Below are positions 1-13,907 of a stretch of DNA of 13,907 nt, one piece after another (positions within the stretch are counted from its first letter, which is position 1; every line of letters begins with the position of its first letter). The notes below the pieces were generated by a model. The model was given only the letters and a program-made list of their open reading frames with translations. It made no database searches and was not told where the DNA came from. Source of the DNA: a virus; the IMG/VR virus record IMGVR_UViG_3300035698_021910, positions 1-13,907 of that record; one strand, written 5' to 3'. Both the position numbers and the translations under genes were made by a program.

Positions 1-127
1 GGGCTAAATTTATTATAATGATTAGCCCCCTGTCTTGTCAAATCTTTTCTACAAGATTTTTTGTTAATATTGTTGTGGATAACCTCCGCCATTATTTTGG
101 TTTCCGTTGTTCTGATTTTGGTTGCCA
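1..127. repeat. Terminal direct repeat, copy 1 (exact duplicate of 13781-13907); marks a circular or permuted genome assembly
   Basis: The 127 nt from gggctaaatttattataatg to ttctgattttggttgcca are identical at both window ends. The boundaries fall inside a G-run of a hairpin stem and inside the CDS 64..279, so they look arbitrary rather than biological. Confidence 0.9.
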
Positions 128-279
128 GCTCCTTTAGTGTTCCACGATATTGATTGAAGTTCCTGCAAAACGCATTCAAATTTGGCTTTGCCCGGTCGGA
201 ATAATTTGCATTCAGAATTACATAAAACTTTGTTTTTCCCAGTACTCATGAAAGGGCATATTTTTTTATCATCAGACAT
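64..279 (-). CDS. Hypothetical small protein (71 aa) with four Cys and an N/Q/G-rich C-terminal tail
   Basis: ORF track. Cys at positions 8, 20, 24 and 36; low-complexity tail GAGNQNQNNGNQNNGGGYPQQY. It is the last gene of the minus-strand series and is followed by hairpins. No family recognised. Confidence 0.5.
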   Translation of the reverse strand: MSDDKKICPFMSTGKNKVLCNSECKLFRPGKAKFECVLQELQSISWNTKGAGNQNQNNGNQNNGGGYPQQY

Positions 280-351
280 ATTTTTCTAAATTTTAAATTT
301 ATTAAATTAAATGGTTTATGATTTTGTGCCCACGAATATCTTTTGTAATAT

Positions 352-510
352 TTATTTTTTTTCATCTTGTTTTTTTTTATTTTTTAATAAAACCCAATCG
401 CCCTTGAGTTCGTGCCAGCAATACATTTTATTGTCATCACCTAGCCCATAGCTCCAATAGTAGCCATTGTTCCCCGGTTGTGGCACGACATGAAATTGAA
501 TTATTTGCAT
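352..510 (-). CDS. Small hypothetical ORF (52 aa), below the track cut-off
   Basis: Hand translation from the ATG at 510: MQIIQFHVVPQPGNNGYYWSYGLGDDNKMYCWHELKGDWVLLKNKKKQDEKK, stop TAA at 352-354. It fills the gap between two same-strand ORFs and has a Trp/Tyr-rich, non-repetitive composition. Confidence 0.4.
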   Translation of the reverse strand: MQIIQFHVVPQPGNNGYYWSYGLGDDNKMYCWHELKGDWVLLKNKKKQDEKK

Positions 511-519
511 AAGATTTTT

Positions 520-738
520 TTATTTTCTAGTTAGAGTTAATTCAACTTCATCTTCATAGATTTGAGCATTTGAAATTTTATAATCGATACCAGAACGGCA
601 ATCATTTTTTTTTCTGCTTATTCTCAAAGTATTAATTTTTAAATAATAACTTAAAATTTTCGATAAGCCTTTTTTATTTGGAAAGCTGGAGCGTTGTTTT
701 CTGCCTATATTTAAATGTAGTTTTTCGGGATATTTCAT
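520..738 (-). CDS. Hypothetical basic protein (72 aa)
   Basis: ORF track. Its start lies 2 nt after the stop of the upstream ORF 740..1003 (tight coupling). No recognisable family. Confidence 0.5.
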   Translation of the reverse strand: MKYPEKLHLNIGRKQRSSFPNKKGLSKILSYYLKINTLRISRKKNDCRSGIDYKISNAQIYEDEVELTLTRK

Positions 739-739
739 T

Positions 740-1003
740 TTAGTTGTGGCTTAATAAAACCATTAGAACATGAGATTTTTCTGACAATTTAGTACAGATA
801 AATCTTTCAAATGCAATAACTTTTTTTATTGTGCAGTTACATTTTTTAGAAATTTGTTTTTGTGTTTTCCTTGCGGGGCTGTTGTCCGTTTGCAAAACAC
901 GATTTAAAATAATAATAAGAATTAATCGTTTATCCTCATCATCATCAAATTTTTCACGAATGTCCTTTTTTAATTTTTCAGCCATTTTCAATGATTTAGT
1001 CAT
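740..1003 (-). CDS. Small putative helix-turn-helix DNA-binding protein (87 aa)
   Basis: ORF track. The segment KTQKQISKKCNCTIKKVIAFERFICTKL looks like an HTH (sigma region-4 or regulator-like), preceded by an acidic or charged N-terminus. By-eye call only. Confidence 0.4.
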   Translation of the reverse strand: MTKSLKMAEKLKKDIREKFDDDEDKRLILIIILNRVLQTDNSPARKTQKQISKKCNCTIKKVIAFERFICTKLSEKSHVLMVLLSHN

Positions 1004-1212
1004 AACTTAAATTTTAATTGTTTAGATTTTTTAATGGGAAAATTGGGGTGTCTGATTAGTTCAGGCACAACAATTTTTTTAATTAAATTTCTCGACCTTT
1101 GTAATTTGCTATTTTTTAATTTTAACAAATATCTTTTATAATACATTTTCCATTGCATCCGTTTGAAGTTTTTTAGTCTTTATTTTTGAATGTATCATTT
1201 TTTTGAATTAGT

Positions 1213-1233
1213 GGGGCGGATTATTTCCACCCC
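1213..1233 (-). terminator. GC-rich hairpin downstream of CDS 1261..1545
   Basis: Minus-strand RNA GGGGUGGA-AAUAA-UCCGCCCC forms an 8-bp stem. The one non-Watson-Crick pair is U.G on the minus strand but C x A on the plus strand, favouring a minus-strand RNA. No clear U-tract follows, so terminator function is uncertain. Confidence 0.35.
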
Positions 1234-1260
1234 AATTATATATTTATTATTAATGTTAAA

Positions 1261-1545
1261 TTAAATTTTTATAACCTGTTTTATGTAAAAAAGATTGATG
1301 TACTTTTTACGTTTTTCCTCTTCTCCTTTTTTATTTTTGAATGTGATCATAATATATGATTTTATCGCTTTCTGTCCTGCTTTGACATGATAGCCATTTT
1401 TATTCCATTGAAAAAGTGTTCGGCAATTTCTAGCAGGATTATATTTTTTAGCTTCGTCTTTTCCAAATCTTGCAATGATTTGGGCTTCTACAAGTTCGGC
1501 AGTTTTTATGCTTCCCGAGTAGTTTGTTTTTTCGAGTTTTTTCAT
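1261..1545 (-). CDS. Small protein (94 aa) resembling the ArdC N-terminal / DUF1738-type ssDNA-binding domain (tentative)
   Basis: ORF track. The motif RTLFQWNKNGYHVKAGQKAIKS resembles the WxxxxxxGxxVKKGEKg signature remembered from ArdC-N-like phage and plasmid proteins. First gene downstream of the consensus promoter at 1590-1617. Confidence 0.35.
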   Translation of the reverse strand: MKKLEKTNYSGSIKTAELVEAQIIARFGKDEAKKYNPARNCRTLFQWNKNGYHVKAGQKAIKSYIMITFKNKKGEEEKRKKYINLFYIKQVIKI

Positions 1546-1589
1546 ATGTTGGTTTTTTTATGTGAGAGTTATCCCCCTCATCTATTATT

Positions 1590-1617: not shown

Positions 1618-1627
1618 GCGTTTCAAC

Positions 1628-2071: not shown

Positions 2072-2728
2072 TTATATTCCCTTATTTTTTAGAACAGGTA
2101 TTTTTAAAACTTGCCCCGGATAAATCAAATGAGGATTTTTTAATTGGTCTTCATTCACTAAATAAATTTCCATAAAGTGTCCGCCATTACCATAAAATTT
2201 TTCCGCTATTTTCCACAAACTATCACCCTCGACGACAACATGATTCCCGTGAAAAACTTTTAAACTATCATCGTCTTTATTAAATAAATTTAATTCGTCG
2301 GGGTCAATATGTTTTAAAAGTGGCAAAGGATCCACAAAATGACCAGAAACAGAAATGCCAAAATGTAGATGATAGCCATTTACACCACGCCAGAAACCAC
2401 TTCGTCCACTATACCCGACTGATTGCCCAGCCTTAAGTTTCCAACCCTCTTTTACTGTAATTTCATTTAGATGAGCTAGTAGGAAAATATAGATAGCACC
2501 GTTTTTATGGCGAGTCTCAATATAAACAGCTTTCCCATATCCACTGGTACATTCAGGTGTTATTCTTTTTACAATGCCGTCAACTGGAGAAATGAGGCGT
2601 GTGAGCTTTGGCAGTCCAAAGTCAACTCCTTTGTGAGTAGCAATTTTTCCTTGATATAGATATTTTACTCCAAATTTTTGAGTAATTGGGTATTTATCAG
2701 GTGTTTGAAAAGGTAAAATAATTTTCAT
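2072..2728 (-). CDS. Endolysin: M23 (LytM-type) metallopeptidase domain plus C-terminal LysM domain
   Basis: ORF track. HKGVDFG (HxxxD) and GYHLHFG (HxH) are the M23 zinc-ligand motifs. The C-terminal HVVVEGDSLWKIAEKFYG...IYPGQVLKIP is a typical LysM repeat. Confidence 0.9.
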   Translation of the reverse strand: MKIILPFQTPDKYPITQKFGVKYLYQGKIATHKGVDFGLPKLTRLISPVDGIVKRITPECTSGYGKAVYIETRHKNGAIYIFLLAHLNEITVKEGWKLKAGQSVGYSGRSGFWRGVNGYHLHFGISVSGHFVDPLPLLKHIDPDELNLFNKDDDSLKVFHGNHVVVEGDSLWKIAEKFYGNGGHFMEIYLVNEDQLKNPHLIYPGQVLKIPVLKNKGI

Positions 2729-2736
2729 AAATTTAA

Positions 2737-2955
2737 TTAGACTTTATTATTTATTGTTTTTTTTATCCAAGTAATATCAGTTTTTAAAATTTCTAAAATA
2801 GTGTAAATTTTATTGACAGGACAAACAGTTTGAGTATTTTCAATTTTATTTATTCTTTTGATTAAGTTATTATAAATATAAATAATAAGACTTATGCAAG
2901 AACCTGCAAAAAAACCGACAATGCAAATAAATTGTGAAATAGATATACTAATCAT
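2737..2955 (-). CDS. Small membrane protein with an N-terminal TM segment (72 aa); holin candidate
   Basis: ORF track. Hydrophobic ISQFICIVGFFAGSCISLIIYIY followed by a polar tail. Its ATG overlaps the upstream stop (ATGA) and it sits directly upstream of the endolysin. Confidence 0.5.
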   Translation of the reverse strand: MISISISQFICIVGFFAGSCISLIIYIYNNLIKRINKIENTQTVCPVNKIYTILEILKTDITWIKKTINNKV

Positions 2956-3455
2956 TTGCTAACAGCTAACGGAGTTATAACTAAATTGCCGTGTTCGACA
3001 GTAATGACTGGACCATTTGTATCGCTTGTAATCATAATTTGAAAAGTATCACCAGTAGATAAAGTAAAAAAACCAGAACCAGAGAGATGACCAACATCGC
3101 CACCAGTGGCTATTTTACGGCACAATTTAAGAGTAGCATTAGCAGTACCATTAATAGCAGGGGCAAATCTAATTATAACATTATTAGTATCAGAAATAAT
3201 ACAAGCGGAAAAAGTAACTAGAACATCAATATCAAGTTCGCCATTATAAGTAACGACACCGCCGACTTGAGTGAAATCGTCTTCGCTAACAGTTGAAAAA
3301 GTTCCTGCAATAGCATAAAAAGTTTCAGCGGTAGTAATGGTAGTAGTAGCACTAGAAGAGATATAATAATAAGCACTAGCAATAGATTTATAAATACGAA
3401 CGCCTTTGATCGCCTCCGTAAGTTTATTTATAGCATTTACAATAGCATTTAACAT
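2952..3455 (-). CDS. Putative tail-fibre tip or receptor-binding protein (167 aa), beta-rich
   Basis: ORF track. A short N-terminal helix is followed by a Ser/Thr/Gly-rich beta-strand pattern (..VTFSACIISD..TLSTGDTFQIMITSD..) reminiscent of TNF/C1q-like jelly-rolls. It is the last structural gene before lysis. By-eye resemblance only. Confidence 0.35.
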   Translation of the reverse strand: MLNAIVNAINKLTEAIKGVRIYKSIASAYYYISSSATTTITTAETFYAIAGTFSTVSEDDFTQVGGVVTYNGELDIDVLVTFSACIISDTNNVIIRFAPAINGTANATLKLCRKIATGGDVGHLSGSGFFTLSTGDTFQIMITSDTNGPVITVEHGNLVITPLAVSK

Positions 3456-3459: not shown

Positions 3460-4893
3460 TTATTTAGAGGCTAATAAGCCAATAGGTTTATATAAATAAG
3501 TTACTTCAAAATCTTCAATTCCATAAGAACCAGCAGAATTAACAATCAAAGCAAATTCGATAAAATCAACAGTCTCTAAATTTCGAATATCATGAATTTT
3601 ACCAGTACTACCAGTTACACCACCAACACCAAGATTTGTTGAATAATCAGTAGTAAGATAATCAATATTTGCACCGATAGAATAATAATTTGAAGCATTC
3701 TCGACTACAGGCTTATGAGTTACAATAATATAACAAGGTACATGTTTAAAATTCAATCGAGGGAATCTGAAATTTGCGGTTTTAGTTGAAATTGTTGAAG
3801 TAGTATCATCATAGATATGGCTTTTACCGTCAGAGCCAACAGATAAAAAATGAATTTCACCAAAAAAATTAACCATTTCAATTAGAGTTTCTTTGCTATC
3901 AATAACTTTCAATAAAAAAATACCACCGTTTTCATTCATTTTGTAGAGGTATCTAAAGCTAGTTGAAGCCTTTGCAGTAAAATAAATATTAAATCTATCA
4001 GTACCAATTATTTTAACATCAGTATACTCATTTAAATTTTCATTAGAAAATAATATTGTTTCAGATTTATCATATCTATAAATTAAAACTCTATCTTTAT
4101 AAATATTAGCAATATAGATATTTTCATTTAATTTAATCATTGTTGCTGTATATTCATAATCTTCAAAAGTTTTTAAAAATTCAAGATCATTAGAAGTATA
4201 TTTACAAAAATAATTTGCGTTTAAATTACCATTTCTAATTATAAAATAAATATATCCGTCTAATTCAGAAATATCAACAACTTGATTATCTAAAGTTGCA
4301 CCGTCATAAAAAGTTTCCCAATCCACCGCATTATTAGAGCGAACAACAAGTCCTGTGTCATCAACAACATAAAAATAACCGTCAGTACCGATTAATGTTT
4401 TAACAGGCACAGAATAAGCCCAATCAGCGTGACTAAAAGTACTAGAATTATCAATACTATAAGATATTCTTTTTGTACCAGAAAGAAGACTAAATGCAAT
4501 TAAAAAATTTTTATAAGCAGTAAGCATATAGCAACTAGTGGTATTTGCAGGGAATGTGTAACCGAGGGTATAAGCATCATCACCTTGATCCTTATAATAA
4601 ATTAAAGGAACATCACCAGAAACATTACGAGCATTAAAAAGTTGAACATTACCGACAACACCTTGAACAGCTAAAGATTTTTTATCATAATTTACAGGAC
4701 TATCATAAGTGATAAGAGTATAATCAGGAGATAAATTTAATTTATGTGAAAAATCATCAATAACCATATTGACGGAAAGTTTAAATTTTGAAAGATCTTT
4801 CAAATCAATATATTCTTGATTAGATTTTCCAGTCATCAAATCAAAATTAATCCGTTGGTATCTTTTTGAGGTACTTCTAAATTTTTTATTCAT
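3460..4893 (-). CDS. Large structural protein (477 aa), likely a tail or host-recognition component
   Basis: ORF track. It is the largest ORF in the post-capsid block, with a beta-rich Tyr/Asn/Asp-rich composition. No tape-measure-sized gene is present, so a short-tailed virion is plausible. Confidence 0.45.
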   Translation of the reverse strand: MNKKFRSTSKRYQRINFDLMTGKSNQEYIDLKDLSKFKLSVNMVIDDFSHKLNLSPDYTLITYDSPVNYDKKSLAVQGVVGNVQLFNARNVSGDVPLIYYKDQGDDAYTLGYTFPANTTSCYMLTAYKNFLIAFSLLSGTKRISYSIDNSSTFSHADWAYSVPVKTLIGTDGYFYVVDDTGLVVRSNNAVDWETFYDGATLDNQVVDISELDGYIYFIIRNGNLNANYFCKYTSNDLEFLKTFEDYEYTATMIKLNENIYIANIYKDRVLIYRYDKSETILFSNENLNEYTDVKIIGTDRFNIYFTAKASTSFRYLYKMNENGGIFLLKVIDSKETLIEMVNFFGEIHFLSVGSDGKSHIYDDTTSTISTKTANFRFPRLNFKHVPCYIIVTHKPVVENASNYYSIGANIDYLTTDYSTNLGVGGVTGSTGKIHDIRNLETVDFIEFALIVNSAGSYGIEDFEVTYLYKPIGLLASK

Positions 4894-4900: not shown

Positions 4901-5482
4901 TTAGCTATTTATTTGTATAGCGTTTAACATTTCAAAATAATGTTTCTTAAAATCATCTCTAATTTTTCTTAATTCTTCGGGTTTTACATCAGGCAATTCA
5001 TCTTTATTTAGAACCATTTTTGTAATAAGTAAATTATAATATCTATATTGTGCACCAAGGTAAACGAGTTCTAATAATTTATAAGGGACATCTGTAACGG
5101 TAGCGGTAGCTGGTTCTTTAAAACCTTTTTCATACAAAATGCGGGTAGTTTTAACAGAAGTAAAAATATTAGTAAATTGAATTGAACCATTGTATTCATA
5201 CCACCTTTGAGTGCTTTGAAGACGGACAGTTTCAAGATCTTTAATATCATTTAATTTTCTTATCTCTTCGCCTTCAATAAAAACAGCCAAAACTTCCATA
5301 CTATTAGTCGGAATATTTAAGGTTTCTTCATCGACAACAGTACTTTGACTTTCATCAAATGAGGGAATACCAAAAAAAGATGACAAAAAATTGATTGAGT
5401 CAAAAATTGGTTGCTCAACGACGGCGGCGGAATCATCGAGATAAGCCCTTACTATTGCTGTAATTTGTGCTAGATTTTTCAT
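4901..5482 (-). CDS. Structural protein (193 aa), possible head-tail adaptor
   Basis: ORF track. The position between the capsid block and tail genes, and the N-terminus ITAIVRAYLDDSAA, resemble head-tail connector proteins. Weak evidence. Confidence 0.3.
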   Translation of the reverse strand: MKNLAQITAIVRAYLDDSAAVVEQPIFDSINFLSSFFGIPSFDESQSTVVDEETLNIPTNSMEVLAVFIEGEEIRKLNDIKDLETVRLQSTQRWYEYNGSIQFTNIFTSVKTTRILYEKGFKEPATATVTDVPYKLLELVYLGAQYRYYNLLITKMVLNKDELPDVKPEELRKIRDDFKKHYFEMLNAIQINS

Positions 5483-6158: not shown

Positions 6159-6896
6159 TTAAATTAGTGGTAACATTCCAAATTTTGCATAAATATGTTT
6201 ATTTATTTTAGTCAAATTTTCCATACCTAGTGCCTTATTATAAATTCTAAATAAAGCGATTGAGCCAGAATAAGGGGAATTAAAATCTAAGGGATCTATA
6301 GAAAAGATTAAATCATAATCTGCACTAAAAAGTATGTTAGTGTTATCACTAGAATCAGTTTTAACAAGTAAACCGTTTGAATAAGCACGACAACTAACAG
6401 AATCAAGTTCCCAAGCTAACAAATAATATCCGCTATCGCCGATTGCATGATAACTGCTAATATCAACATTATCCTCTTCCAAAGTATCACCCCAAGTTTT
6501 AAAACGAACACGCTCAGAGCTATCAAGATAAAATTCAAAAGTAGAACGACTTATCTCGTCTCCAACATCAACAAGAGAATTTTTGATAAATACTTGCTCG
6601 GAATCAAGCATATTAGTGAGTGGTTTTTTGACAAGCATGATAATAGTAAATTCATCCAAAAGAAAATCAGCACTATGTGCGATTGTAGCGAAATCATCAG
6701 CACCGTCAAAACTAATTACTTGTTTGTTTCCAACAGAGCTATCTTTTTCAAGAGTACAACCGTCAATAACCATATCATTACCGTTTCCACTTCTATCAAG
6801 CATAGTCAATCCAGTGTCATAATGTGGAAAAATATCACAAAATAAACCGTCCCGATAATCAGGTGTTATAATTTTATAAGGTGGAGTTCTCAACAT
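6159..6896 (-). CDS. LamG / concanavalin-A-like lectin-fold protein (245 aa); probable virion-surface or fibre component
   Basis: ORF track. DRSGNGNDMVIDGCTL...ISFDGADDFATIAHSADFLLDEFTIIMLVK matches the remembered Laminin_G_3 pattern (D-SGNGN..G...FDG-DD-v-i......l....FTi..wvk). Confidence 0.6.
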   Translation of the reverse strand: MLRTPPYKIITPDYRDGLFCDIFPHYDTGLTMLDRSGNGNDMVIDGCTLEKDSSVGNKQVISFDGADDFATIAHSADFLLDEFTIIMLVKKPLTNMLDSEQVFIKNSLVDVGDEISRSTFEFYLDSSERVRFKTWGDTLEEDNVDISSYHAIGDSGYYLLAWELDSVSCRAYSNGLLVKTDSSDNTNILFSADYDLIFSIDPLDFNSPYSGSIALFRIYNKALGMENLTKINKHIYAKFGMLPLI

Positions 6897-7004: not shown

Positions 7005-8159
7005 TTAAGTAATTCCATACATTCTAGTACCTCCACCATTTGATACTCTCATTGTGTATTCACCCAAAATTTGAATAGCAAGTTGCTTTCCGTTAGTTTT
7101 GTCATAAACGGGATAAGTAGCAAAAGCACCACCTTGCCCTTTGACACCACCGTCCAAAGGTCCATAACCAACTCTATTATAATCTAAGATTAAAGCCTCA
7201 TCTGATCGCATGTGTTTATCAACATGCAATTCGATTTCATAACCCAAAACAACTATAGTATTTATTTCAGTACCACCTTTTTTATCACTAACTTTAGTTC
7301 TAACAGCACCTTGATATAATTGCTCTATATCTCCAATAGATTCTGGAGAACCATGAATAGCAGACGGATATAATCCGCCGTCAATATGAGCGGTAACAGC
7401 AGTATAGATTTTGGCAACAGATAAAGCACCACCAACATTTGAAGTAATCGTGATAAATTCACGAAGTCCGCCCATTGTACCAATAAAATTAGTAGTGTCC
7501 AAATCAACAACACCTTCGAGCATAGTATAATTCAAACTTTTTAATAATTCCTTTAACTTTTTAACTACTTGATAATCCAATTCATCACCATTTGCCATTT
7601 TAGATCTTCGAAGTGTACCAGAAATTTGTGCAACATCTTCAAAAATTTGAGTATAATTTAAGCCAGCAGTTTGAGCGGTAAAATTAGCGGCGATAGGGTC
7701 GCCATTTTCGATTTGAGCATTACCAATGATTTTACAAACATGAGAACTATCGTGAGCCAAAACAGCAGCAGTTGAAGAACCGTGTCCACGGGCATAAACA
7801 TCTATAGATAAAGCGGCCAAAGCTGAAACAATCATAATCTCATCTGCATCAGTCAATAAAACATCGCCAATCCGCAATTTTAATCGGTCAGGTGCAGTAA
7901 TTGGTAAAGCAGTTTTATCAGAGGTAGTGTCCCAATCGGCAGCGTCCCCGCTGGCGGTAACTGTTATATATTCAGACCTTGCGGCATCGTCAAGCCATTC
8001 GTGCTTTTGAGCAGTAACCTTTTTATTAAAAGCCTTTTCAATAGAGGGTAAAAAATTAATAAATGATAAATATTTCATATCATCATCTTTTAGTGCCAAA
8101 ATGTCAATGACACTACTTAAATCTTCTCGCTCTCGTCTATTAGTTGTAATTAAATCCAT
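7005..8159 (-). CDS. Major capsid protein (HK97-fold type), 384 aa
   Basis: The track ORF 7005..8378 is trimmed to Met74 (ATG at 8159, MDLITTNRRE...). The upstream 73 codons overlap the scaffold ORF and are K-rich filler. The gene follows portal and scaffold. Motifs HEWLDD and NYTQIFED, plus the Gly/Ala-rich core, resemble capsid families I remember. Confidence 0.8.
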   Translation of the reverse strand: MDLITTNRREREDLSSVIDILALKDDDMKYLSFINFLPSIEKAFNKKVTAQKHEWLDDAARSEYITVTASGDAADWDTTSDKTALPITAPDRLKLRIGDVLLTDADEIMIVSALAALSIDVYARGHGSSTAAVLAHDSSHVCKIIGNAQIENGDPIAANFTAQTAGLNYTQIFEDVAQISGTLRRSKMANGDELDYQVVKKLKELLKSLNYTMLEGVVDLDTTNFIGTMGGLREFITITSNVGGALSVAKIYTAVTAHIDGGLYPSAIHGSPESIGDIEQLYQGAVRTKVSDKKGGTEINTIVVLGYEIELHVDKHMRSDEALILDYNRVGYGPLDGGVKGQGGAFATYPVYDKTNGKQLAIQILGEYTMRVSNGGGTRMYGIT

Positions 8160-8166: not shown

Positions 8167-8760
8167 TTATACAGGTAAATTTTCTTTCTGCCGATTAAGT
8201 TTGAGTATATCGACAGCTGAACTTTCACCGTTTTTAGTTTTATCTTCTTTAACTTTATCGATTGCCTCGTCAAAATCTGCCTCGGTTGAAAAACTAGGTG
8301 GTGCAAAATGTTGACTATCGCCATACATTTTTTTATTGACTTCTCGTTGTTTATCAACAATTTTTTCAATCTCATCATTACTTTTTCCGATTAAAAATTC
8401 GGGAAGTATATCAGGATAAGTTTTTTGCAAAACTTCCGATTGATGAGCTGTATTCATCACCTCAATATTTTTAGTTAAGTCTTCAACAGTCTTGCTTAAA
8501 TTTTCGATTTTTTTTTCAGAGTCCGACTTTTTGTCGTCATTTGTTTTTTTAATTTTTTCAAAATCCTCTTCAATTTTTTTTAAATCTAAATCTTTTTGAC
8601 TAAGCGTTTTTTGAAGTTTTTTAAAGTCTTCATCTTTTTTGAACTTACCGCTTGATTTTTCAAAAAGTTTACTAAAATCTTCAGGACTTATTGAATCAGG
8701 CAGAGTTTTTTCGTCAAGGTTTAAAAAGGTTCTAAACATTAACAGTAATTTTTTATCCAT
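8167..8760 (-). CDS. Scaffolding protein (197 aa)
   Basis: ORF track. Extremely K/E/D-rich and helical or coiled-coil-like. It lies between portal and capsid, and its stop is 7 nt before the capsid ATG. Confidence 0.6.
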   Translation of the reverse strand: MDKKLLLMFRTFLNLDEKTLPDSISPEDFSKLFEKSSGKFKKDEDFKKLQKTLSQKDLDLKKIEEDFEKIKKTNDDKKSDSEKKIENLSKTVEDLTKNIEVMNTAHQSEVLQKTYPDILPEFLIGKSNDEIEKIVDKQREVNKKMYGDSQHFAPPSFSTEADFDEAIDKVKEDKTKNGESSAVDILKLNRQKENLPV

Positions 8761-8786: not shown

Positions 8787-10178
8787 TTAATTATTATTTT
8801 GCGGTTCTACTTTTGGCGGAATTTTTACGGGTATATTTTCTTCAAACAATTTTTTTTCCTCAAGAATTAAAGCAAGTTTTTCTTCGGCATTTTCAACGCC
8901 TCTTAATTCGTCAATAGCATCTCTGTGCGAGATTAAGTCATTTTCGGTCATTTTAACATATTGATCAACACGCTCATCATTATCTTGAACCAAAAAAGGT
9001 TGATAGATTGGGTCAGTATTGTAAACACTTTCTTTATATTTATAACTGAGGATAGCATGATTTAATTCTCTAAAAGCCTTATCCCACTTTAACCTTAAAA
9101 ATCCGATTAAATCCATCATATCAGAATATTGATAAGTTAAAGATTTACCACTAACATTTGATTTTATACTTCCTGCACTGTGAACAATACCAGTTTTATT
9201 AATTATTCTTTTTTCAATAACATCAAGCCAACCGACAATTTCCCGACCCTCTTTTAATTCAAGATATTTCATATCATCATCAACGCCAAGTCTAGTCTGT
9301 TTTTTTCGTCCTCTTTTAATACTTTTACTTTCCGCCATAGCAGATTTTATCAACAAATGCGGGTCAGTATTTTCCTCAATTCGTTTATCATAATTTGATG
9401 AATTTCTATTATAAGCACGATCTAATTCAGAAAGTAATTTAGTTTTTGGGATACCCTCATGACTATGAGGTTTTGGACTATTAGGTATCCAAGAGAACGG
9501 AATAAAATTATATTTATTAGTTTCAGTATGAATTTTTTCAGCATTTTCATCTATAATAATTATTTGGTGTAAATCATAATAAGTAATTCTATATTTAGAT
9601 TTTCCTATATATTCTTTATAAGCAAATTGTACCAGTTGCCCTTTATCCCAACCAAGATAGCATTTTGTGGGGTCTAATGAAAAAATATTTGCCCTTTTTG
9701 TGATTGGGTCAACGGGATAATATAAACAGCCAGCACCACCAACAAAAAAATTCAAAGATTGTTCATTTAGAATATCAGGAATATGATTTGTTTGATAAAT
9801 TTCTAAAATTTCATCTTCAAATTTTCTATTTAAAGCCTTGTTAGTTTCTTTAACTTTTACGCCGATTTCAAGTACACCAGTATGAGGATTTCTAGGAAAA
9901 AGACGGGCAATATATCTCGACACATATTCTTCGGTAAAATTAAAAGTCAAACATTTTTCATTTTCAGAATCTTTTATATTTAATTCACTGGAAGTCCATT
10001 GTTTACTTTCTAAAACAAAATCCATTAGAGCAGAAAATTCCGCGGACCTTTTTCTAGTTTGGTCACTAGCAAATTTAAGAAAATTATTAACAAATTCCCT
10101 TGAATTGCCAGAAAAATCAAGACTATTAGTTTTGTTTAATTCATTGCTTTTATTAAAAAGATAATTCAAAATTGACAT
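8787..10178 (-). CDS. Portal protein (463 aa)
   Basis: ORF track. Size and position are canonical (immediately after terL and before scaffold and capsid). No diagnostic motif recognised by eye. Confidence 0.7.
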   Translation of the reverse strand: MSILNYLFNKSNELNKTNSLDFSGNSREFVNNFLKFASDQTRKRSAEFSALMDFVLESKQWTSSELNIKDSENEKCLTFNFTEEYVSRYIARLFPRNPHTGVLEIGVKVKETNKALNRKFEDEILEIYQTNHIPDILNEQSLNFFVGGAGCLYYPVDPITKRANIFSLDPTKCYLGWDKGQLVQFAYKEYIGKSKYRITYYDLHQIIIIDENAEKIHTETNKYNFIPFSWIPNSPKPHSHEGIPKTKLLSELDRAYNRNSSNYDKRIEENTDPHLLIKSAMAESKSIKRGRKKQTRLGVDDDMKYLELKEGREIVGWLDVIEKRIINKTGIVHSAGSIKSNVSGKSLTYQYSDMMDLIGFLRLKWDKAFRELNHAILSYKYKESVYNTDPIYQPFLVQDNDERVDQYVKMTENDLISHRDAIDELRGVENAEEKLALILEEKKLFEENIPVKIPPKVEPQNNN

Positions 10179-10224: not shown

Positions 10225-11589
10225 TTAACCGTCAACAGTTCCATAAGTATTAGTTATAACAGGAATTTTAGAGCAAGCAACAGCTAAAGCCATTAAATTA
10301 TCAGTCTCAAGATTTCCGTCGGCTCGTTGGTAAGTGGTCATTTCGTCGGCAAGTTCGGGAATATAAGGAGATTGAATTAATCCACCGTCAATAACAGCCT
10401 GAAGATGATCAAGCAAAAAATCTTTATTTCCACCACGGAAATCGACGGGGTGGACTACATCCATACACATTTCCCACAAAGTATCACCGACACCAGTACT
10501 ATCCATAAAAGATTGAGAACCACTTTCAAGTTGGGCGGTCCTAATTTCTTTTTCCATAGACGACGGAGCTTTGATTTCATTTTCTTTATTAAAATTTTCA
10601 CGTCCTTTTTCAGTCCAAGGTAATTGAAAAGCCCAACGCTTAACTATTTTATAAGGTTTTTTTCCTTTTAGAATACGGAAGCCAACAGTTTGGTCAGATA
10701 AACTTCCACGACGACCACGTGCTAAATCCCAACCCTCAATATAATCATAACCATTTTCAACAATATCAGTTAAATCAAGTTTATTATTGAAAAGTTTATC
10801 AACTCTTGAGGCAAACATCATTTCAGCAGTATCAATAAATTTTCCTTTGACAATTTGGTCTATTTTATTTTTACTCCAAGTTGAACAAAGATAATCAAAA
10901 AGTTTATGATCAATATGTGGATTTTCATAGGAAGTACCGCCACGAATAAATCCGCCTTTCCTTTCAATATCATTTTTAATTCGATAATAAGAATTAAAAC
11001 CTTTTGGCGTGGCATAAAAATCAAGTTGGCTATCTTTCCATTTTCTAGTCCTAGGAAGCAAAATTTTTTCGCGAATAAATTCAAGGTGTCTTTCGAGAGC
11101 AATTTCGTCAGCGGAAATATAACCGTATTCTTTACCCTCAATACTTTCACCTTTTCTTTTAGTGGTTTTAAATTCGGTACAAGCACCATTTTTGAAACGG
11201 ATTTGAGGGTAAGGATGATGAACAACATCTTTTTTAATATCACAAAACCAAGTACCAAGTAAGGGACTATGAGAAATTAAAGCAATCATTCGTTCGAGTA
11301 CAAGCTCTGATAATTCTTGAGTAATAGCAACATTTAAAGTTTTATATTTTTCACAATCAAGATAATGATACAATAAAAATCTCAAATGCTTTTTAGCAAT
11401 AACATCAGTTTTGCCCCAACCATTGCCCGGATGCAATAAATTTTCTTTTTTAGTAGAATTTTTAAGCCAATCTAATTGTCCCGGATGACTTTTATAATCA
11501 AGAACCAAATCATCAAAAGCAGACCAATCATTGTCAGTTTCAATAAGTTTCAAAGAGAAAGCTATAATATTTAATATTTTTTTATTCAT
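10225..11589 (-). CDS. terL: Terminase large subunit
   Basis: ORF track (454 aa). Walker A-like HPGNGWGKTD, Walker B-like GYISADEIA, YATPKG coupling-type motif, and C-terminal nuclease-type acidic motifs GWDLARG, MDSTGVGD and ETDNLMA. Confidence 0.9.
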   Translation of the reverse strand: MNKKILNIIAFSLKLIETDNDWSAFDDLVLDYKSHPGQLDWLKNSTKKENLLHPGNGWGKTDVIAKKHLRFLLYHYLDCEKYKTLNVAITQELSELVLERMIALISHSPLLGTWFCDIKKDVVHHPYPQIRFKNGACTEFKTTKRKGESIEGKEYGYISADEIALERHLEFIREKILLPRTRKWKDSQLDFYATPKGFNSYYRIKNDIERKGGFIRGGTSYENPHIDHKLFDYLCSTWSKNKIDQIVKGKFIDTAEMMFASRVDKLFNNKLDLTDIVENGYDYIEGWDLARGRRGSLSDQTVGFRILKGKKPYKIVKRWAFQLPWTEKGRENFNKENEIKAPSSMEKEIRTAQLESGSQSFMDSTGVGDTLWEMCMDVVHPVDFRGGNKDFLLDHLQAVIDGGLIQSPYIPELADEMTTYQRADGNLETDNLMALAVACSKIPVITNTYGTVDG

Positions 11590-11626
11590 TTTTTTAAAAG
11601 TAAAAAAATTATTTCTTCGATAGATT

Positions 11627-11710
11627 TTTGAGTTTTTTTTAAAGATGAAAAGTGAAAAAAGCGTTTGAGTTTTTTTTTAAAAATGAAAAGTAAAAAAGCG
11701 TTTGAGTTTT
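11627..11710. repeat. 2.3 tandem copies of a 37-bp repeat just upstream of the terL start
   Basis: Copies are TTTGAGTTTTTTTTAAAGATGAAAAGTGAAAAAAGCG (11627-11663), TTTGAGTTTTTTTTTAAAAATGAAAAGTAAAAAAGCG (11664-11700) and a partial TTTGAGTTTT (11701-11710). Confidence 0.85.
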
Positions 11711-11780
11711 CTCCGAAATCTTAATATATATAACACCCCCACTCTTTTGTTTTTGCTTTTTAAACATTAAACATTCAATA

Positions 11781-11960
11781 TTTAAACATTTAAACATTCA
11801 AGTTTCAACATTTAAACATTTAAACATTCAAGTTTCAACATTTAAACATTTAAACATTCAAGTTTCAACATTTAAACATTAAAACATTCAAGTTTCAACA
11901 TTTAAACATTAAAACATTCAAGTTTCAACATTTAAACATTAAAACATTCAAGTTTCAACA
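11781..11960. repeat. Six head-to-tail copies of a 30-bp unit (iteron-like array)
   Basis: The unit is TTTAAACATT(T/A)AAACATTCAAGTTTCAACA. Copies 1-3 carry T at unit position 11 and copies 4-6 carry A; otherwise they are identical. A degenerate partial copy lies at about 11759-11780. Each unit holds three AACATT hexamers spaced 8 and 14 nt apart. There are no spacers, so it is not a CRISPR array. Confidence 0.95.
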
Positions 11961-12160
11961 TTAAAGATTAAATAAGATGAAGATATAACAAACAAAGTTA
12001 AATAACATCATTAAATACAATATTGATATTGTACTTAATACTATTAAATAAGATAATAATACAACAAGATTAACAAAATTTAATAAACAAGACATAAATA
12101 ATACTAATTAATATACTATATATAGCCATACAAACAAGTAATATGTAACAATATATAGTA
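11961..12160. other. Extremely AT-rich, A-biased tract; candidate DNA-unwinding or bent region
   Basis: A manual count gives about 14 G and 19 C in 200 nt (about 16-17% GC). A greatly exceeds T on the plus strand, opposite to the coding regions, where the plus strand is T-rich. It directly abuts the 30-bp array. Confidence 0.5.
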
Positions 12161-12332
12161 ATACCACACCGCCCGACATTCAATTCACCTAATAGTCAAG
12201 ACTAAACCGCCCAACATTCAATCTTCCTAAGCACTAATATAGCTTAATATTGCCACAAAAGCTATGAATATATAACAATATAAAGCGATACCACTCCGCC
12301 AAATTACTGATTGACCTAATAACTAAGATTAA
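12138..12332. repeat. Degenerate ~67-bp direct repeat (12138-12205 and 12266-12332) with an extra half-copy (12204-12237), each carrying a CCGCC(C) core
   Basis: ATACCACACCGCCCGACATTCAATTCACCTAATAGTCAAGACTAA aligned with ATACCACTCCGCCAAATTACTGATTGACCTAATAACTAAGATTAA gives 31/45 identical without gaps, by hand. AACCGCCCAACATTCAATCTTCCTAAGCACTAA is a third related site. Confidence 0.6.
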
Positions 12333-12371
12333 TCCGAATAGAACTTCAAATGGATTAACTCCAAAAAGGAT

Positions 12372-12448
12372 GTCTAATTTGATACTCTTTTTACAACTCC
12401 CTCTTCACTTGAAAGTGAACCCGTTGTAAAAAGAGTATCAAATTAGAC
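12372..12448. repeat. Perfect 26-bp inverted repeat (77-nt hairpin or cruciform) with a nested mini-hairpin in the loop
   Basis: GTCTAATTTGATACTCTTTTTACAAC (12372-12397) is the exact reverse complement of GTTGTAAAAAGAGTATCAAATTAGAC (12423-12448). The 25-nt loop contains TTCACT-tgaa-AGTGAA (12404-12419). Confidence 0.95.
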
Positions 12449-12501
12449 TTTATCACTGCGGGATTAGCTCTAATGCTTCCTATTCTGCAATGGTTAGGCA
12501 T

Positions 12502-12527
12502 CATCGCATAATGTATATTAAGCGAAG
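12502..12527. promoter_or_regulatory. Imperfect 26-bp palindrome, copy 1 (CATCGCATAAT-gtat-ATTAAGCGAAG)
   Basis: It is self-complementary and also complementary to copy 2: 12505-12528 against 12621-12644 gives 24 bp with one G.T position. It is followed by TAGCC, as copy 2 is followed by AAGCC. Confidence 0.6.
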
Positions 12528-12621
12528 TAGCCTCAAACTTTAACTTTATTTAAAACTATATCGCGGGGCATTTAACTATAAGATATTACATATCATTTAC
12601 TAAAAAATAAAGCAGTACTAA

Positions 12622-12647
12622 CTTCGCTTAATATGCATTATGCGAAG
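12622..12647. promoter_or_regulatory. Imperfect 26-bp palindrome, copy 2 (CTTCGCTTAAT-atgc-ATTATGCGAAG)
   Basis: Same architecture as copy 1, with centres 120 bp apart. Direct alignment of the 28-nt cores gives 22/28 identity by hand. Confidence 0.6.
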
Positions 12648-12816
12648 AAGCCCACTTTTAACTGCCTGCGTGTACTCTGTTCTTTTACTGTTTATCTAGT
12701 TGGCTTCTGCTAGCTCGTTTTCTTTTGCAAATTTCCTGCTTAGCCAATTCCATATGTGAGAAATTTAAACTTAAATTTAACAAGAAAACTTTTTTTATTC
12801 CTGCCTCGTGTCATTT

Positions 12817-12888
12817 GTAGCTACCGCCCCCCGGTCTTTCCGCCCTGCGGGCGATATTACTTGCTCGTCCCTACTTCCTGCCGGGGCG
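12817..12888. ncRNA. GC-rich nested stem-loop element; candidate structured RNA of unknown class and undetermined strand
   Basis: Palindrome GTAGCTAC (12817-12824). Outer helix CGCCCC (12825-12830) with GGGGCG (12883-12888), or the alternative register CCCCGG with CCGGGG. Inner hairpin CGCCC-tgc-GGGCG (12841-12853). An alternative GGGCGA/TCGTCCC pairing is also possible. Local GC is about double the genome average. Confidence 0.35.
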
Positions 12889-13024
12889 AACTCATCATTC
12901 ATTCCAGCTAGTATTTATTGCAATTTTTTATTTTCAATTAGTCCAAGTCTTTTAATTAAAGGTTATTTACACAACTGCTAAAACTTTTGTGCTTTTAAAA
13001 ACTATCCCTTTTGTTGCACACAAA

Positions 13025-13564
13025 TTAAGTTTTAAATAAAACTGCCTGCTCATTCATTTGTAATCCGTATTTATCAGTCGCTTTTTGGAATACAGCTAGA
13101 ACATCTTTATTGTCTAAATTGTCGCCCTGTAATATTTGATAACGGATTTTAGCTAATTTTTCTAAATCAGAAATATCAATTTTATAGCTATTAGTATTCA
13201 TGGCATTTAAAATTTTATCATAAGCTAGATCAAGTAATTGAACAGTTTTTTGTAGATGAACTGATTGACTGGTGATTTCCTCGAGCGTCTCATTCTTAAT
13301 AATTTTAGTTGCTACATTTCTTTTATAATCAGCATAATTTTTAAAATGACGACATAGGCTAGCAGGCGAAACGCTATAACCAAACTGCTCCGAACACGCA
13401 ATAACTATCTCATCAAATGTTTTCCCGTTTTTTCTTAATTTATGAATTTCAGGTAAATAGCCAGAGTTACAGATTGAACAACGAGCGTCGCATATCTTTT
13501 CGTCAATTCCGCAAGATTTAAGTTGAGAGTCGATTGTTTTTTTTTCTTCGATAGTTTTATTCAT
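13025..13564 (-). CDS. Cys4 + helix-turn-helix DNA-binding protein (179 aa); small-terminase-like or replication/packaging initiator candidate
   Basis: ORF track. N-terminal CX6CX3CX2C cluster, an HTH-like segment GKTFDEIVIACSEQFGYSVSPASLCRHFKNY, and a helical C-terminal half. It is upstream of terL on the same strand but separated from it by 1.43 kb. Confidence 0.4.
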   Translation of the reverse strand: MNKTIEEKKTIDSQLKSCGIDEKICDARCSICNSGYLPEIHKLRKNGKTFDEIVIACSEQFGYSVSPASLCRHFKNYADYKRNVATKIIKNETLEEITSQSVHLQKTVQLLDLAYDKILNAMNTNSYKIDISDLEKLAKIRYQILQGDNLDNKDVLAVFQKATDKYGLQMNEQAVLFKT

Positions 13565-13672
13565 TGTTGAAAGTTATCCACAGCCCTTAGTGAGCGAGTT
13601 TAAAAAAGTGAGAATGATAATGATAGTTATTACTTTAGTAAGTTAGTAGTTAGTTAGTAAGTAACTAACTTA

Positions 13673-13701
13673 AGAGTAACTTTAATTTTGGGATTTGTCA
13701 A
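13673..13701 (-). promoter_or_regulatory. Candidate sigma70-type promoter for the terS-like gene
   Basis: The minus strand reads TTGACA (13701-13696), a 17-nt spacer, then TACTCT (13678-13673; only T1, A2 and T6 match the consensus). A DnaA box lies 3 nt upstream of the -35. Confidence 0.35.
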
Positions 13702-13778
13702 GCCTGTGGAAAAGGGGCTTATTTATCCACCTACTTATCCACAAGGACTAATCCCATAATTTGGGACCTATAAGAATG

Positions 13779-13810
13779 GGGGGCTAAATTTATTATAATG
13801 ATTAGCCCCC
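13779..13810 (-). terminator. GC-capped 9-bp hairpin at the end of the minus-strand gene series
   Basis: GGGGGCTAA (13779-13787), a 14-nt loop, TTAGCCCCC (13802-13810). On the minus strand it follows the stop of CDS 64..279 (across the circular junction) and is followed by AUUCUUAU. Copy 1 (1-30) is truncated by the window edge. Confidence 0.5.
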
Positions 13811-13907
13811 TGTCTTGTCAAATCTTTTCTACAAGATTTTTTGTTAATATTGTTGTGGATAACCTCCGCCATTATTTTGGTTTCCGTTGTTCTGATTTTG
13901 GTTGCCA
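13781..13907. repeat. Terminal direct repeat, copy 2 (exact duplicate of 1-127)
   Basis: Identical 127 nt. It includes the 3' part of the same CDS as 64..127, so it is not an independent gene. Confidence 0.9.
13792..13821 (-). promoter_or_regulatory. Near-consensus sigma70-type promoter embedded in the hairpin (also at 12-41)
   Basis: The minus strand reads TTGACA (13821-13816), an 18-nt spacer, then TATAAT (13797-13792). The -10 hexamer lies in the loop of the 13779-13810 hairpin. Confidence 0.45.

Follow-up and report, generated by a model that had tools for sequence, protein, structure and literature searches.

How does a tailed phage replicate and persist when its genome carries virion and lysis genes but encodes no detectable enzyme for replication, recombination or integration? 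The window, which is the whole 13,907-nt stretch that we analysed (IMG/VR record IMGVR_UViG_3300035698_021910), raised this question because an earlier note, made from the letters alone, read it as a complete minimal phage genome that must outsource replication entirely to its host. We conclude that this is a complete 13.8-kb tailed-phage genome from a widespread, uncultured lineage of ultra-small (Patescibacteria) bacteria. It carries mimics of the host chromosome's dif site and a cluster of DnaA boxes, so it probably uses host machinery both to integrate and to replicate.

We first checked that the observation itself was sound, and it was. Bases 1–127 equal bases 13781–13907 exactly, which closes the sequence into a 13,780-bp circle at 30.5% GC, and all credible ORFs are on the minus strand, in line with the co-oriented genes that the note had described. 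Searches against Pfam and PHROGs, together with gene position and conservation in relatives, gave the following features. Relatives are labelled L001 onwards.

1–127: terminal overlap identical to 13781–13907; relatives also close as circles.
13025–13564, minus: probable small terminase (TerS), 179 aa, with a Zn-ribbon plus HTH and then a long helix; phrog_426 TerS at E=0.019; homologs weakly hit Phage_Mu_Gp27; the AF2 model has a confident HTH at residues 25–75 and a helix at 77–123; the best, non-significant, Foldseek hits are the phage G20c small terminase; conserved in all relatives, always upstream of terL.
10225–11589, minus: large terminase (TerL); Terminase_6N, 6e-7; 52–79% identical in relatives.
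8787–10178, minus: portal protein of the SPP1 type; SPP1_portal, 1.6e-20.
8167–8760, minus: scaffold-like coiled-coil protein; phrog_4866 at E=0.006, with support from position and conservation.
7005–8159, minus: major capsid protein (MCP) of the SU10/DUF5309 type, HK97 class; SU10_MCP, 1.3e-35; its profile hits the PDB 9in6 capsid at 2.6e-8.
6159–6896, minus: LamG/concanavalin-like protein (decoration or fibre); Laminin_G_3, 1e-9.
4901–5482, minus: head-to-tail adaptor of the SU10 type, 193 aa; 10 of 13 family members hit Pfam SU10_adaptor (PF24175), best 2e-8.
3460–4893, minus: 477-aa all-beta protein directly after the adaptor, with weak beta-propeller/BNR matches; its AF2 model was unusable (pLDDT 35), and its role as a tail nozzle is inferred only.
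2952–3455, minus: 167-aa fibre-like or receptor-binding candidate; C-terminal match to phrog_16509 at 4.8e-8; a variable module in relatives, with C1q, CBM and LamG domains.
2072–2955, minus: lysis cassette, with a 72-aa hydrophobic, holin-like protein (2737–2955) and an M23 peptidase plus LysM lysin (2072–2728).
1261–1545, minus: 94-aa ArdC-N-like (ssDNA-binding type) protein; PF08401 at 22.5 bits against a cutoff of 22.6; two accessory ORFs in relatives hit ArdcN, best 4.8e-6.
64–279, minus: 71-aa four-cysteine protein (p71), a core gene of the whole family; four invariant Cys in 18 homologs and no family or PDB match.

Every ORF of 150 aa or more is accounted for by packaging, virion or lysis functions. 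The note had named a replication initiator or polymerase among the small ORFs as something that would overturn its reading, and we found none: no ORF hits a polymerase, primase, helicase, Rep, terminal protein, integrase or resolvase in Pfam, PHROGs or NCBIfam. A scan of 114 accessory ORFs from 23 relatives found no such enzyme either, and only SSB, ArdC_N and HTH_36/DnaD_N appeared there. Dependence on the host is therefore the only economical reading.

We considered whether a cryptic initiator or recombination factor could still be present among the small, unannotated ORFs (p71, p87, p72, p52, p94 and others), in which case replication or integration would be only partly outsourced. The conservation of p71 across the whole family allows for this, and some relatives carry HTH_36/DnaD_N-like proteins (174 aa in L029, 1e-9), a bona fide SSB (L007) or ArdC-N-like proteins. 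In addition, L020, L028 and L029 have a Zn-ribbon+HTH gene next to attR, a placement that parallels the terminal regulator and XafT genes of known IMEXs (PMC12715192). However, no family or PDB match was found for any of the small ORFs, and all are 94 aa or shorter in the window, which is too small for a polymerase, helicase, primase, HUH Rep, or tyrosine or serine recombinase. The HTH_36 and Zn-ribbon+HTH genes have no homolog in the window. We think this alternative is unlikely, although a novel factor such as p71, p87 or p72 remains possible.

The lack of any replication gene, and a genome size in the range of capsid-forming satellites, could also suggest a satellite-like element that relies on a co-infecting phage or plasmid rather than on the host. 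We consider this very unlikely. The genome encodes its own TerS, TerL, portal, scaffold, MCP, adaptor, tail candidates and lysis genes, which is the opposite of the known satellite pattern, it has no integrase or primase-Rep module as in PICI or P4, and its cis signals, namely DnaA boxes and dif mimics, are of host type.

The genome is not an assembly accident. More than 120 capsid-protein clusters mostly sit on contigs of 12–15.7 kb, and the relatives L002, L003, L004, L006, L007, L008 and L027 close as circles of 11.9–15.5 kb, with end overlaps of 125, 127, 114, 69, 25, 127 and 141 nt, respectively, and share the same gene order. The bins in which relatives are found name Parcubacteria, Moraniibacteriota and Patescibacteria. 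The note suggested an undescribed minimal Caudoviricetes group. The group has no name and is very far from any isolate, with 24–27% identity for MCP, portal and TerL, but it is abundant in public metagenomes and already sits in Patescibacteria MAG bins.

The note also took as a premise that tailed phages of 11–19 kb usually carry a protein-primed polymerase. This ignores the roughly 109 actinophages under 20 kb (bioRxiv 10.1101/2022.02.05.479200), a paper whose text never mentions a polymerase. Small actinophages, such as Rhodococcus phage RRH1 (14.2 kb) and Microbacterium cluster EE, are for the most part not known to carry a polymerase. They are siphoviruses of Actinobacteria, we found no sequence similarity to them, and no Xer-site strategy is known for them. 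The phi29-like Picovirinae and Mycoplasma phage P1 are podophages of 11.7–19 kb (PMC7762592), comparable in genome size and in the probable short tail. These phages replicate linear genomes with a protein-primed PolB and terminal protein, neither of which is present here, and this genome closes as a circle.

Overall, the note's interpretation was partly supported. It was correct that there are no integration genes, but this does not mean that there is no integration, and the note missed that the lineage is probably temperate through host Xer recombination. Between terS and terL, a gap of 431–1689 nt without ORFs is present in all 23 relatives that carry both genes. In the window, we found no conserved ORF in this gap in any frame, also with recoded stop codons. 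The region contains the following elements.

11590–13024, minus: 1.4-kb ORF-free region between terS and terL; candidate att, pac and ori region.
12621–12648, minus: dif-like site A, CTTCGCATAA TGCATA TTAAGCGAAGT (arm, 6-nt spacer, arm).
12501–12528, plus: dif-like site B, inverted relative to A, TCATCGCATAA TGTATA TTAAGCGAAGT; its 16-nt core CGCATAATGTATATTA is identical to E. coli dif.
12372–12448, minus: conserved structured hairpin with a 26-bp perfect stem, a small apical stem and a purine-rich internal loop.
11759–11969, minus: tandem array of 7 x 30 bp; with 12176–12221 it holds 9 copies of TTGAATGT.
11627–11710, minus: tandem repeat of 2.3 x 37 bp just upstream of terL.

The two 28-bp dif-like sites compare with 0 expected by chance, and the 8-mer TCGCAYAA occurs nowhere else in the genome. 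The pair is conserved in ten relatives (L001, L002, L003, L004, L040, L043, L025, L026, L007 and L008), and the two 6-nt spacers of a pair always differ. As ssDNA the pair folds at −32 kcal/mol (z = −6.3).

Two more distant relatives are integrated in host contigs, and each is flanked by a direct repeat equal to one arm plus the spacer of a full dif-like site. L020 is a 12.6-kb element between 17-nt direct repeats ACGTCGCACAATGTAGA, of which the right copy is a full 11-6-11 imperfect palindrome. In L020 the host genes converge on the site and GC skew flips from +0.16 to −0.06 across it, as expected at a replication terminus. L029, on a 65.8-kb Moraniibacteriota contig, is a 13.8-kb element between 19-nt repeats GCATGTCGCATAAGTTACA, and its right copy is again a full palindrome. 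The contig of a third relative, L028, ends exactly in such a site. Neither integrated element has an integrase or resolvase, and together with the flanking repeats this is the signature of an IMEX. There is precedent for this arrangement, as "left-armed 17-bp" attP sites are described for known phage IMEXs (PMC12715192), and the gonococcal genetic island (GGI), VGJ-phi and TLC-phi have the same arm-plus-central-region logic (PMC5357621).

We therefore believe, with moderate confidence, that the window is the complete genome of a minimal short-tailed (podovirus-like, with SU10-type capsid and adaptor) temperate phage of Patescibacteria, encoding only packaging, virion and lysis functions plus a few small proteins. 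In this view, host Xer tyrosine recombinases would recombine one of the two inverted mimics of dif, the chromosome dimer-resolution site, with chromosomal dif, which would make the phage an IMEX. The difference between the two central regions would either block Xer-mediated inversion between the sites or give a mismatched central region if the pair folds into a CTX-phi-like hairpin. Our analysis establishes the completeness of the genome, its gene content, the absence of the enzymes, the conserved sites and the integrated relatives at dif-like sites, while dependence on Xer and DnaA, the tail type and the role of each cis element are inferences from sequence. The tail is only partly documented. 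The case for integration has weaknesses. We found no integrated copy of the window's own clade, the type with paired sites, and the two integrated relatives share only 46–49% MCP identity with the window, have a single left-armed site upstream of terS and lack the pair. All integrated copies come from metagenome assemblies, the host dif is inferred from the junctions alone, and only L020 gives terminus-type context. A full dif on both flanks should be excised efficiently by FtsK-XerCD, so stable lysogeny of the window type is uncertain.

Because no integrated copy of the paired-site type was found among more than 120 relatives, it is possible, though we think unlikely, that the element is a strictly lytic or plasmid-like (episomal) phage whose dif-like sites are cer/psi-like multimer-resolution sites of a circular replicon initiated by host factors. 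The sites have both arms intact, like a functional dif, and they sit in a long ORF-free, hairpin-rich region with repeats, next to a DnaA-box cluster. This would resemble ColE1-type plasmids, which have no initiator protein of their own, replicate entirely by host enzymes from an ORF-free origin region and use XerCD at cer. However, cer is a single site with accessory sequences and not an inverted pair, we have no evidence here for an RNA II/RNA I primer system, and ColE1 is not a virus. Multimer resolution needs one site per monomer, not a conserved inverted pair with deliberately different spacers, and relatives with the same core genes are integrated at dif-like sites. In addition, pac-type packaging benefits from concatemers, so resolving them would be counter-productive.

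It is also possible, but doubtful, that the resemblance to dif is coincidental in the window's clade, and that the paired TCGCAYAA palindromes are operators for a phage or host HTH regulator, or RNA or DNA hairpins with another role such as RNase III sites or single-strand initiation signals. The pair folds well as a single strand, the integrated relatives lack it, and the gap is full of other long hairpins. One of these, at 12372–12448, shows strong covariation, with 25 of 30 pairs compensatory across six genomes (0 of 500 shuffles). However, the stems of that hairpin are free to change, whereas in the pair the arm sequences are conserved and the loop is not. The same arm motif and 11-6-11 geometry form the attachment cores and host sites of L020, L029 and L028, and there is the 16-nt identity to canonical dif.

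For replication, the note had pointed to DnaA boxes and to an iteron-like locus. The DnaA-box enrichment is real, with 13 matches at no more than one mismatch against 4.9 expected, and 0 of 200 shuffles reached 13. The relevant elements lie upstream of terS.

13574–13862: DnaA-box cluster, with boxes at 13574, 13705, 13723, 13735 and 13854 (the last equals 74–82) and an AT-rich repeat tract between them; candidate host-dependent origin or DnaA-controlled promoter region.
13792–13821, minus: perfect sigma-70 consensus promoter (TTGACA-18-TATAAT) reading into the DnaA boxes and terS.

The same arrangement is conserved in L001, L002 and L004, and most other relatives have 2–3 boxes there, although boxes are absent or single in some (L003, L007, L027). 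In our model, replication is also outsourced: as a prophage the genome would be copied with the chromosome, and as a free circle it would most likely start from the DnaA-box cluster, AT-rich tract and strong promoter, using host DnaA and the host replisome, perhaps assisted by the small ArdC-N-like protein. The boxes lie between a promoter and terS, so they could simply regulate transcription. The 30-bp "iterons" are a real tandem array, but they are not conserved in relatives and there is no Rep to bind them, so this part of the note's reading was not supported. A pac or TerS-binding site is at least as likely.

The closest known systems that we identified are the IMEX phages CTX-phi, VGJ-phi and TLC-phi (Inoviridae) and dif-type double-jelly-roll (DJR) vibriophages. 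They have no recombinase of their own, a dif-like attP, a prophage at chromosomal dif flanked by repeats equal to one arm plus the central region, and small genomes that economise by using host functions (PMC12715192, PMC5357621). CTX-phi has two inverted dif-like sites about 90 nt apart, which is like the 92-nt spacing here. Those phages are ssDNA filamentous or tailless DJR phages of Vibrio and other Proteobacteria, and they encode their own replication initiator (RstA in CTX-phi), while this is a dsDNA, terminase-packaged, HK97-class tailed phage of Patescibacteria with no initiator. One of these papers speaks of "non-tailed IMEXs" and contrasts them with Int-encoding tailed phages (PMC12715192). 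The GGI and other dif-flanked islands have a degenerate dif with a conserved XerC-side arm and central region and a divergent XerD-side arm (PMC5357621), as in the attP of L020 and L029, but they are non-viral islands of tens of kb. For the virion module, the MCP and adaptor families point to Escherichia phage SU10 (Kuravirus). SU10 is a phage of about 77 kb with its own replication genes, and the similarity here is at profile level only.

Bases 1-127 are identical to 13781-13907, so the sequence closes into a circle of 13,780 bp at 30.5% GC. All credible ORFs lie on the minus strand, and reading in the direction of transcription we found the following order.

13025-13564, minus strand: a 179-aa Zn-ribbon/HTH protein, most likely the small terminase (TerS)
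then a 1.4-kb ORF-free stretch
10225-11589, minus strand: large terminase, TerL (Terminase_6N, 6e-7)
8787-10178, minus strand: portal (SPP1_portal, 1.6e-20)
8167-8760, minus strand: a scaffold-like protein
7005-8159, minus strand: major capsid protein, MCP (SU10_MCP, 1.3e-35)
then a LamG protein, three small ORFs, a 193-aa protein, a 477-aa all-beta protein (p477), a 167-aa protein and a small hydrophobic, holin-like protein, in that order
2072-2728, minus strand: an M23+LysM lysin
then seven small ORFs

The HK97-class capsid protein, portal and large terminase are those of the Caudoviricetes. The tail is less well documented. The 193-aa protein belongs to a family in which 10 of 13 members hit Pfam SU10_adaptor, and fibre-type domains (LamG, C1q, CBM) occur in the variable module. 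For p477, which follows the adaptor candidate, we found only weak beta-propeller signals, a word-based homolog search found nothing, and the single-sequence AF2 model was unusable at pLDDT 35, so calling it a nozzle is an inference from gene position. We believe that the 179-aa protein is the small terminase because it has a PHROG TerS match at E=0.019, its homologs weakly hit Mu gp27, its model has an HTH followed by a long helix, and it sits upstream of terL in every relative. Foldseek gave no significant match for it, although small terminases ranked first at E = 1.5.

No ORF in the window matched a polymerase, primase, helicase, Rep, terminal protein, integrase, resolvase or transposase in Pfam, PHROGs or NCBIfam, and every ORF of 150 aa or more is already assigned. 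The only replication-flavoured hit is a 94-aa ArdC-N-like (ssDNA-binding type) protein that scores at the Pfam threshold. A 71-aa protein at 64-279, with homologs in 17 relatives, has four invariant cysteines (CPF..C...C..YR....YEC.FQE). It is a core gene of the whole family, is more conserved than TerS, and lies just upstream of the promoter and DnaA-box region. It matched no family or structure, and profiles of both the 71-aa and the 94-aa protein found nothing in PDB. Protein-primed small podophages (Picovirinae-like) are defined by a family-B DNA polymerase, a terminal protein and a linear genome with inverted terminal repeats; here there is no such ORF, no ORF of suitable size, and the genome closes as a circle. 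Phage satellites (PICI, cf-PICI, P4-like) are defined by an integrase plus a primase/Rep module and by dependence on helper structural genes; here there is no integrase or primase, and the element has its own packaging, capsid, adaptor, tail-candidate and lysis genes.

This genome is not an artefact; it belongs to a widespread lineage. The capsid protein has 130 relatives at E <= 0.001, of which at least 120 share 41-97% identity, and most of their longest contigs are 12-15.7 kb. Seven relatives close as circles of 11.9-15.5 kb with different end overlaps (125, 127, 114, 69, 25, 127 and 141 nt) and the same gene order. Longer contigs with the capsid gene, of 19-25 kb, are head-to-tail concatemer assemblies, not prophages; in the relatives L033/L034, L036 and L037 these scaffolds are concatemers of one genome of about 14.6 kb, or of two closely related genomes, and L037 joins two variants whose gaps are 76% identical. 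MAG bins and source names point to Parcubacteria, Moraniibacteriota and the "Patescibacteria group". GenBank phages share no DNA similarity and only 24-27% protein identity for TerL, MCP and portal, and two papers on Patescibacteria phages do not describe this lineage.

We also scanned 114 accessory ORFs of 90 aa or more from 23 relatives and found no integrase, resolvase, transposase, polymerase, primase, helicase or Rep. The hits were SSB (2), ArdC_N (2), HTH_36/DnaD_N (2/1) and fibre-type domains (LamG, C1q, CBM). The HTH_36/DnaD_N-like protein (1e-9) of relative L029 (257-781) and the bona fide SSB (2.5e-31) of relative L007 (7657-8058) have no homolog in the window.

All 23 relatives that carry both terS and terL keep 431-1689 nt without a conserved ORF between them. 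We considered a hidden gene in this gap and rejected it, since no conserved ORF appears, even when TGA, TAG or TAA is read as sense, and conservation is independent of reading frame. In the window this region contains two 28-bp imperfect palindromes in inverted orientation, 92 nt apart.

12501-12528, plus strand: dif-like site B, TCATCGCATAA-TGTATA-TTAAGCGAAGT
12621-12648, minus strand: dif-like site A, CTTCGCATAA-TGCATA-TTAAGCGAAGT

None is expected by chance, and the 8-mer TCGCAYAA occurs nowhere else in the genome. The geometry of an 11-nt arm, a 6-nt centre and an 11-nt arm is that of dif (PMC5357621), and a 16-nt core is identical to E. coli dif, GGTGCGCATAATGTATATTATGTTAAAT. The pair is conserved in ten relatives (L001, L002, L003, L004, L040, L043, L025, L026, L007 and L008), while the DNA between the two sites is not. 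In every pair the arms match but the central regions differ, at position 3 in eight genomes (for example TGCATA/TGTATA, CGCACA/CGGACA and CACAGA/CATAGA) and at positions 4-6 in three genomes. In the six closest relatives in which we compared the right arms (L001-L004, L040, L043), one site also has an arm one nucleotide longer than the other.

A maintained difference between two otherwise matching sites suggests that the two sites interact. The heterology may prevent recombination between them, which would invert the segment, or it may give a mismatched centre if the two fold together. As single-stranded DNA they fold at -32 kcal/mol (z = -6.3), and this is the arrangement of attP1 and attP2 in CTX-phi. 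We looked for covariation in the flanks of the pair to separate the hairpin model from the duplex model, but the flank is a conserved GGCAAAT-like extension and does not discriminate. A scan of IMG/VR for the window's site pattern gave 33 hits, none in this family, which is close to what we estimate chance would give. Unrelated viral contigs in IMG/VR (L126, of 4.2 kb, L129 and L150) carry a perfectly palindromic TCGCATAA-N6-...GCGAAGT-type site, and L127, L128, L133 and L139 are contigs of 4.0-4.6 kb with single matches; these may be other Xer-exploiting small viruses, or chance matches.

The earlier note had proposed looking for prophage copies, and we found two relatives integrated in host DNA. 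L020 lies on a 57-kb contig, shares 49% MCP identity with the window, carries the same core genes and is flanked by cellular genes. A unique 17-nt direct repeat, ACGTCGCACAATGTAGA, brackets 12.6 kb, and the right copy continues as a full site, CGTCGCACAA-TGTAGA-TTTTGCGAAGT. The host sequences on the two sides are complementary to each other (TATCATAC ... GTATGATA), as expected if they once formed one extended palindrome. Host genes converge on the site and GC skew changes from +0.16 to -0.06 across it, and both are signatures of a replication terminus. L029 lies on a 65.8-kb contig of a Moraniibacteriota MAG and shares 46% MCP identity. Here a 19-nt repeat, GCATGTCGCATAAGTTACA, brackets 13.8 kb, and the right copy is a full palindrome, ATGTCGCATAA-GTTACA-TAGTACGACAT, followed by host genes. 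A third relative, L028, is a contig that ends exactly inside such a site.

Neither integrated element has a recombinase. Their attP therefore keeps the XerC-type arm and the central region of the host site, with a divergent second arm. This matches the "left-armed 17-bp" attP described for inovirus and double-jelly-roll IMEXs (integrative mobile elements exploiting Xer) in Vibrio (PMC12715192), a paper that describes "non-tailed IMEXs" and contrasts them with Int-encoding tailed phages. It also matches the logic of GGI, VGJ-phi and TLC-phi (PMC5357621). Our searches found no tailed-phage IMEX, although that is not proof of absence. The integrated relatives carry the site upstream of terS, and they lack the pair and the long hairpins in the gap. 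An IMEX encodes no site-specific recombinase of its own and carries a dif-like attachment site, and the window shows both; integrated copies of an IMEX lie at the chromosomal dif, flanked by dif/attP hybrid repeats with one junction that regenerates a full dif, a pattern that the relatives L020 and L029 fit. We found no integrated copy of the window's own clade, so transfer of the conclusion to the window rests on the shared motif and shared core genome, not on an observed junction.

The gene next to the att site in L020 (15735-16274), L029 (13119-13676) and L028 (8016-8504) encodes a Zn-ribbon + C-terminal HTH protein of 179-185 aa, which occurs only in the subclade with a single left-armed attP. 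A TTATCCACAGGGG box lies about 115 nt before the site in L020 and L028. The position of this gene parallels the terminal regulator and XafT genes of known IMEXs. A further case is relative L021 (WBZQ01000313.1, a 41.6-kb contig of an NCBI MAG), where at 3700-21173 host DNA is followed by a full element and then by an inverted partial second element, with a second terL on the minus strand at 18440-19765 and a dif-like site at 20430 in its gap. Two direct dif-like sites lie at 3740 and 3951 at the left border. We could not define the right junction, and this may be an IMEX array or an assembly chimera.

For replication, we searched for TTATCCACA with at most one mismatch and found it 13 times against 4.9 expected, and 0 of 200 shuffles reached 13. 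Five copies lie within about 290 nt (13574-13862), at 13574, 13705, 13723, 13735 and 13854 (the last equals 74-82). They flank an AT-rich repeat tract and sit just downstream of a perfect consensus promoter at 13821-13792. The same arrangement of boxes upstream of terS recurs in L001, L002 and L004, two or three boxes occur there in L040, L043, L006, L025 and L044, L003, L024 and L026 have one, and L007 and L027 have none. This fits a DnaA-dependent (oriC-type) origin, which has a cluster of DnaA boxes next to an AT-rich unwinding region, and equally a DnaA-controlled promoter. We hold the origin reading only tentatively. The promoter at 13792-13821 (= 12-41) is one of two perfect 12/12 sigma-70 consensus promoters on the coding strand, and its -10 box lies in the loop of a GGGGGCTAA/TTAGCCCCC stem. 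The other, at 1590-1617, lies upstream of the small-ORF block that starts with the ArdC-N-like gene.

The earlier note said that the DnaA boxes and an iteron-like locus fit replication by the host. The locus is an array of 7 x 30 bp (11759-11969) that is absent from relatives, some of which have unrelated tandem repeats at the same place (L007 2.7 x 56 bp, L008 2.4 x 35 bp). Together with two further copies at 12176-12221 it gives nine TTGAATGT motifs on the minus strand, seven of them phased at 30 bp, against 1.2 expected in the whole window. With no Rep protein to bind it, a pac or TerS-binding site is at least as plausible as an iteron set. Between the array and the hairpin described next, at 12120-12320, lie two 54-nt and three 33-nt imperfect direct repeats (GGCGG[A/T]GTGGTAT..., ...ATTGAATGT[C/T]GGGCGGT).

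Directly downstream of the dif-like pair, the window and five relatives carry a second conserved cis element, a hairpin of 70-80 nt.

12372-12448 in the window
10927-11001 in L001
8-82 in L002
310-382 in L003
3365-3437 in L004
4056-4129 in L040

It has a stem of about 25 bp of non-conserved sequence, a 5-bp apical CTGGC/GCCAG stem and a purine-rich internal loop (GAGGAG). Of 30 pairs, 25 show compensatory double changes, 96% of all cells are paired, 0 of 500 shuffles reach the observed values, and slid controls give 43-58%. The sequences were picked as hairpins, so pairing within each is partly by selection, but their shared position and shared apical motif argue that they are homologous. G-U pairs are almost absent, so RNA and single-stranded DNA cannot be told apart. 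Every free genome examined has one to seven such long hairpins in the gap. The hairpin matches no Rfam family, and a search of the window for known RNA families and tRNAs found none; Rfam reported only chance miRNA-type hits on long hairpins.

What the earlier note observed, a complete tailed-phage genome with morphogenesis and lysis genes but without replication, recombination or integration genes, is confirmed. Its interpretation, that the lineage leaves replication entirely to the host, is partly supported. The genome is complete, minimal and host-dependent, but the more interesting point is that the lineage appears to outsource integration as well as replication, since it carries mimics of the host dif site and has integrase-free prophage copies at dif-like sites. 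We are highly confident that this is a complete tailed-phage genome without replication or recombination enzymes, and confident that the family includes Xer-type integrating members. We are only moderately confident that the window's own paired sites are Xer substrates. The closed circle, the gene content, the conserved pair and the integrated relatives come directly from the sequences, while recombination by host XerC/XerD (or a single Xer), origin function at the DnaA boxes and the identity of the nozzle are inferred.

If this reading is correct, it would extend Xer hijacking from filamentous and tailless phages and genomic islands, where it is already known, to tailed phages, and it would show how far a tailed phage can be reduced, to virion, packaging and lysis genes plus cis-acting mimics of host sites. 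It gives a sequence handle, TCGCAYAA-N6-TTRYGCGA, for locating dif and the replication terminus in Patescibacteria, which are mostly uncultured, and it offers a natural, very small integrating vector backbone for them. It also warns that prophage and lifestyle predictors that rely on integrase genes will misclassify such phages as lytic. A bolder reading is possible, although we consider it less likely than not. In this view, this is the first tailed (HK97-class, terminase-packaging) phage lineage that is an IMEX, a Patescibacteria-specific family of podophages of about 12-15 kb that has lost every replication and recombination enzyme. Its CTX-phi-like pair of inverted dif mimics with an obligatory central-region mismatch, next to covarying hairpins and ssDNA-binding proteins, would suggest that a folded single-stranded or cruciform attP, and perhaps ssDNA-type priming signals, operate in a dsDNA tailed phage.

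The window also has a GC-rich island in an AT-rich genome, at 12795-12902, with nested GC stems (GCCCCGG...CCGGGGGGC, CGCCC-GCA-GGGCG). As RNA its fold is only weakly better than shuffles (z = -2.2). GC-rich hairpins occur at the same relative position in L001, L027 and L036. The non-coding gap of L027 (11627-12177) is 67-70% identical at the nucleotide level over about 545 nt to those of L036 (4572-5137) and L033 (4156-4701), although the MCPs of these phages are each only 51-56% identical to the window's. The stretch includes three long hairpins, one of which is the dif-like pair, and this points to strong constraint on the cis region.
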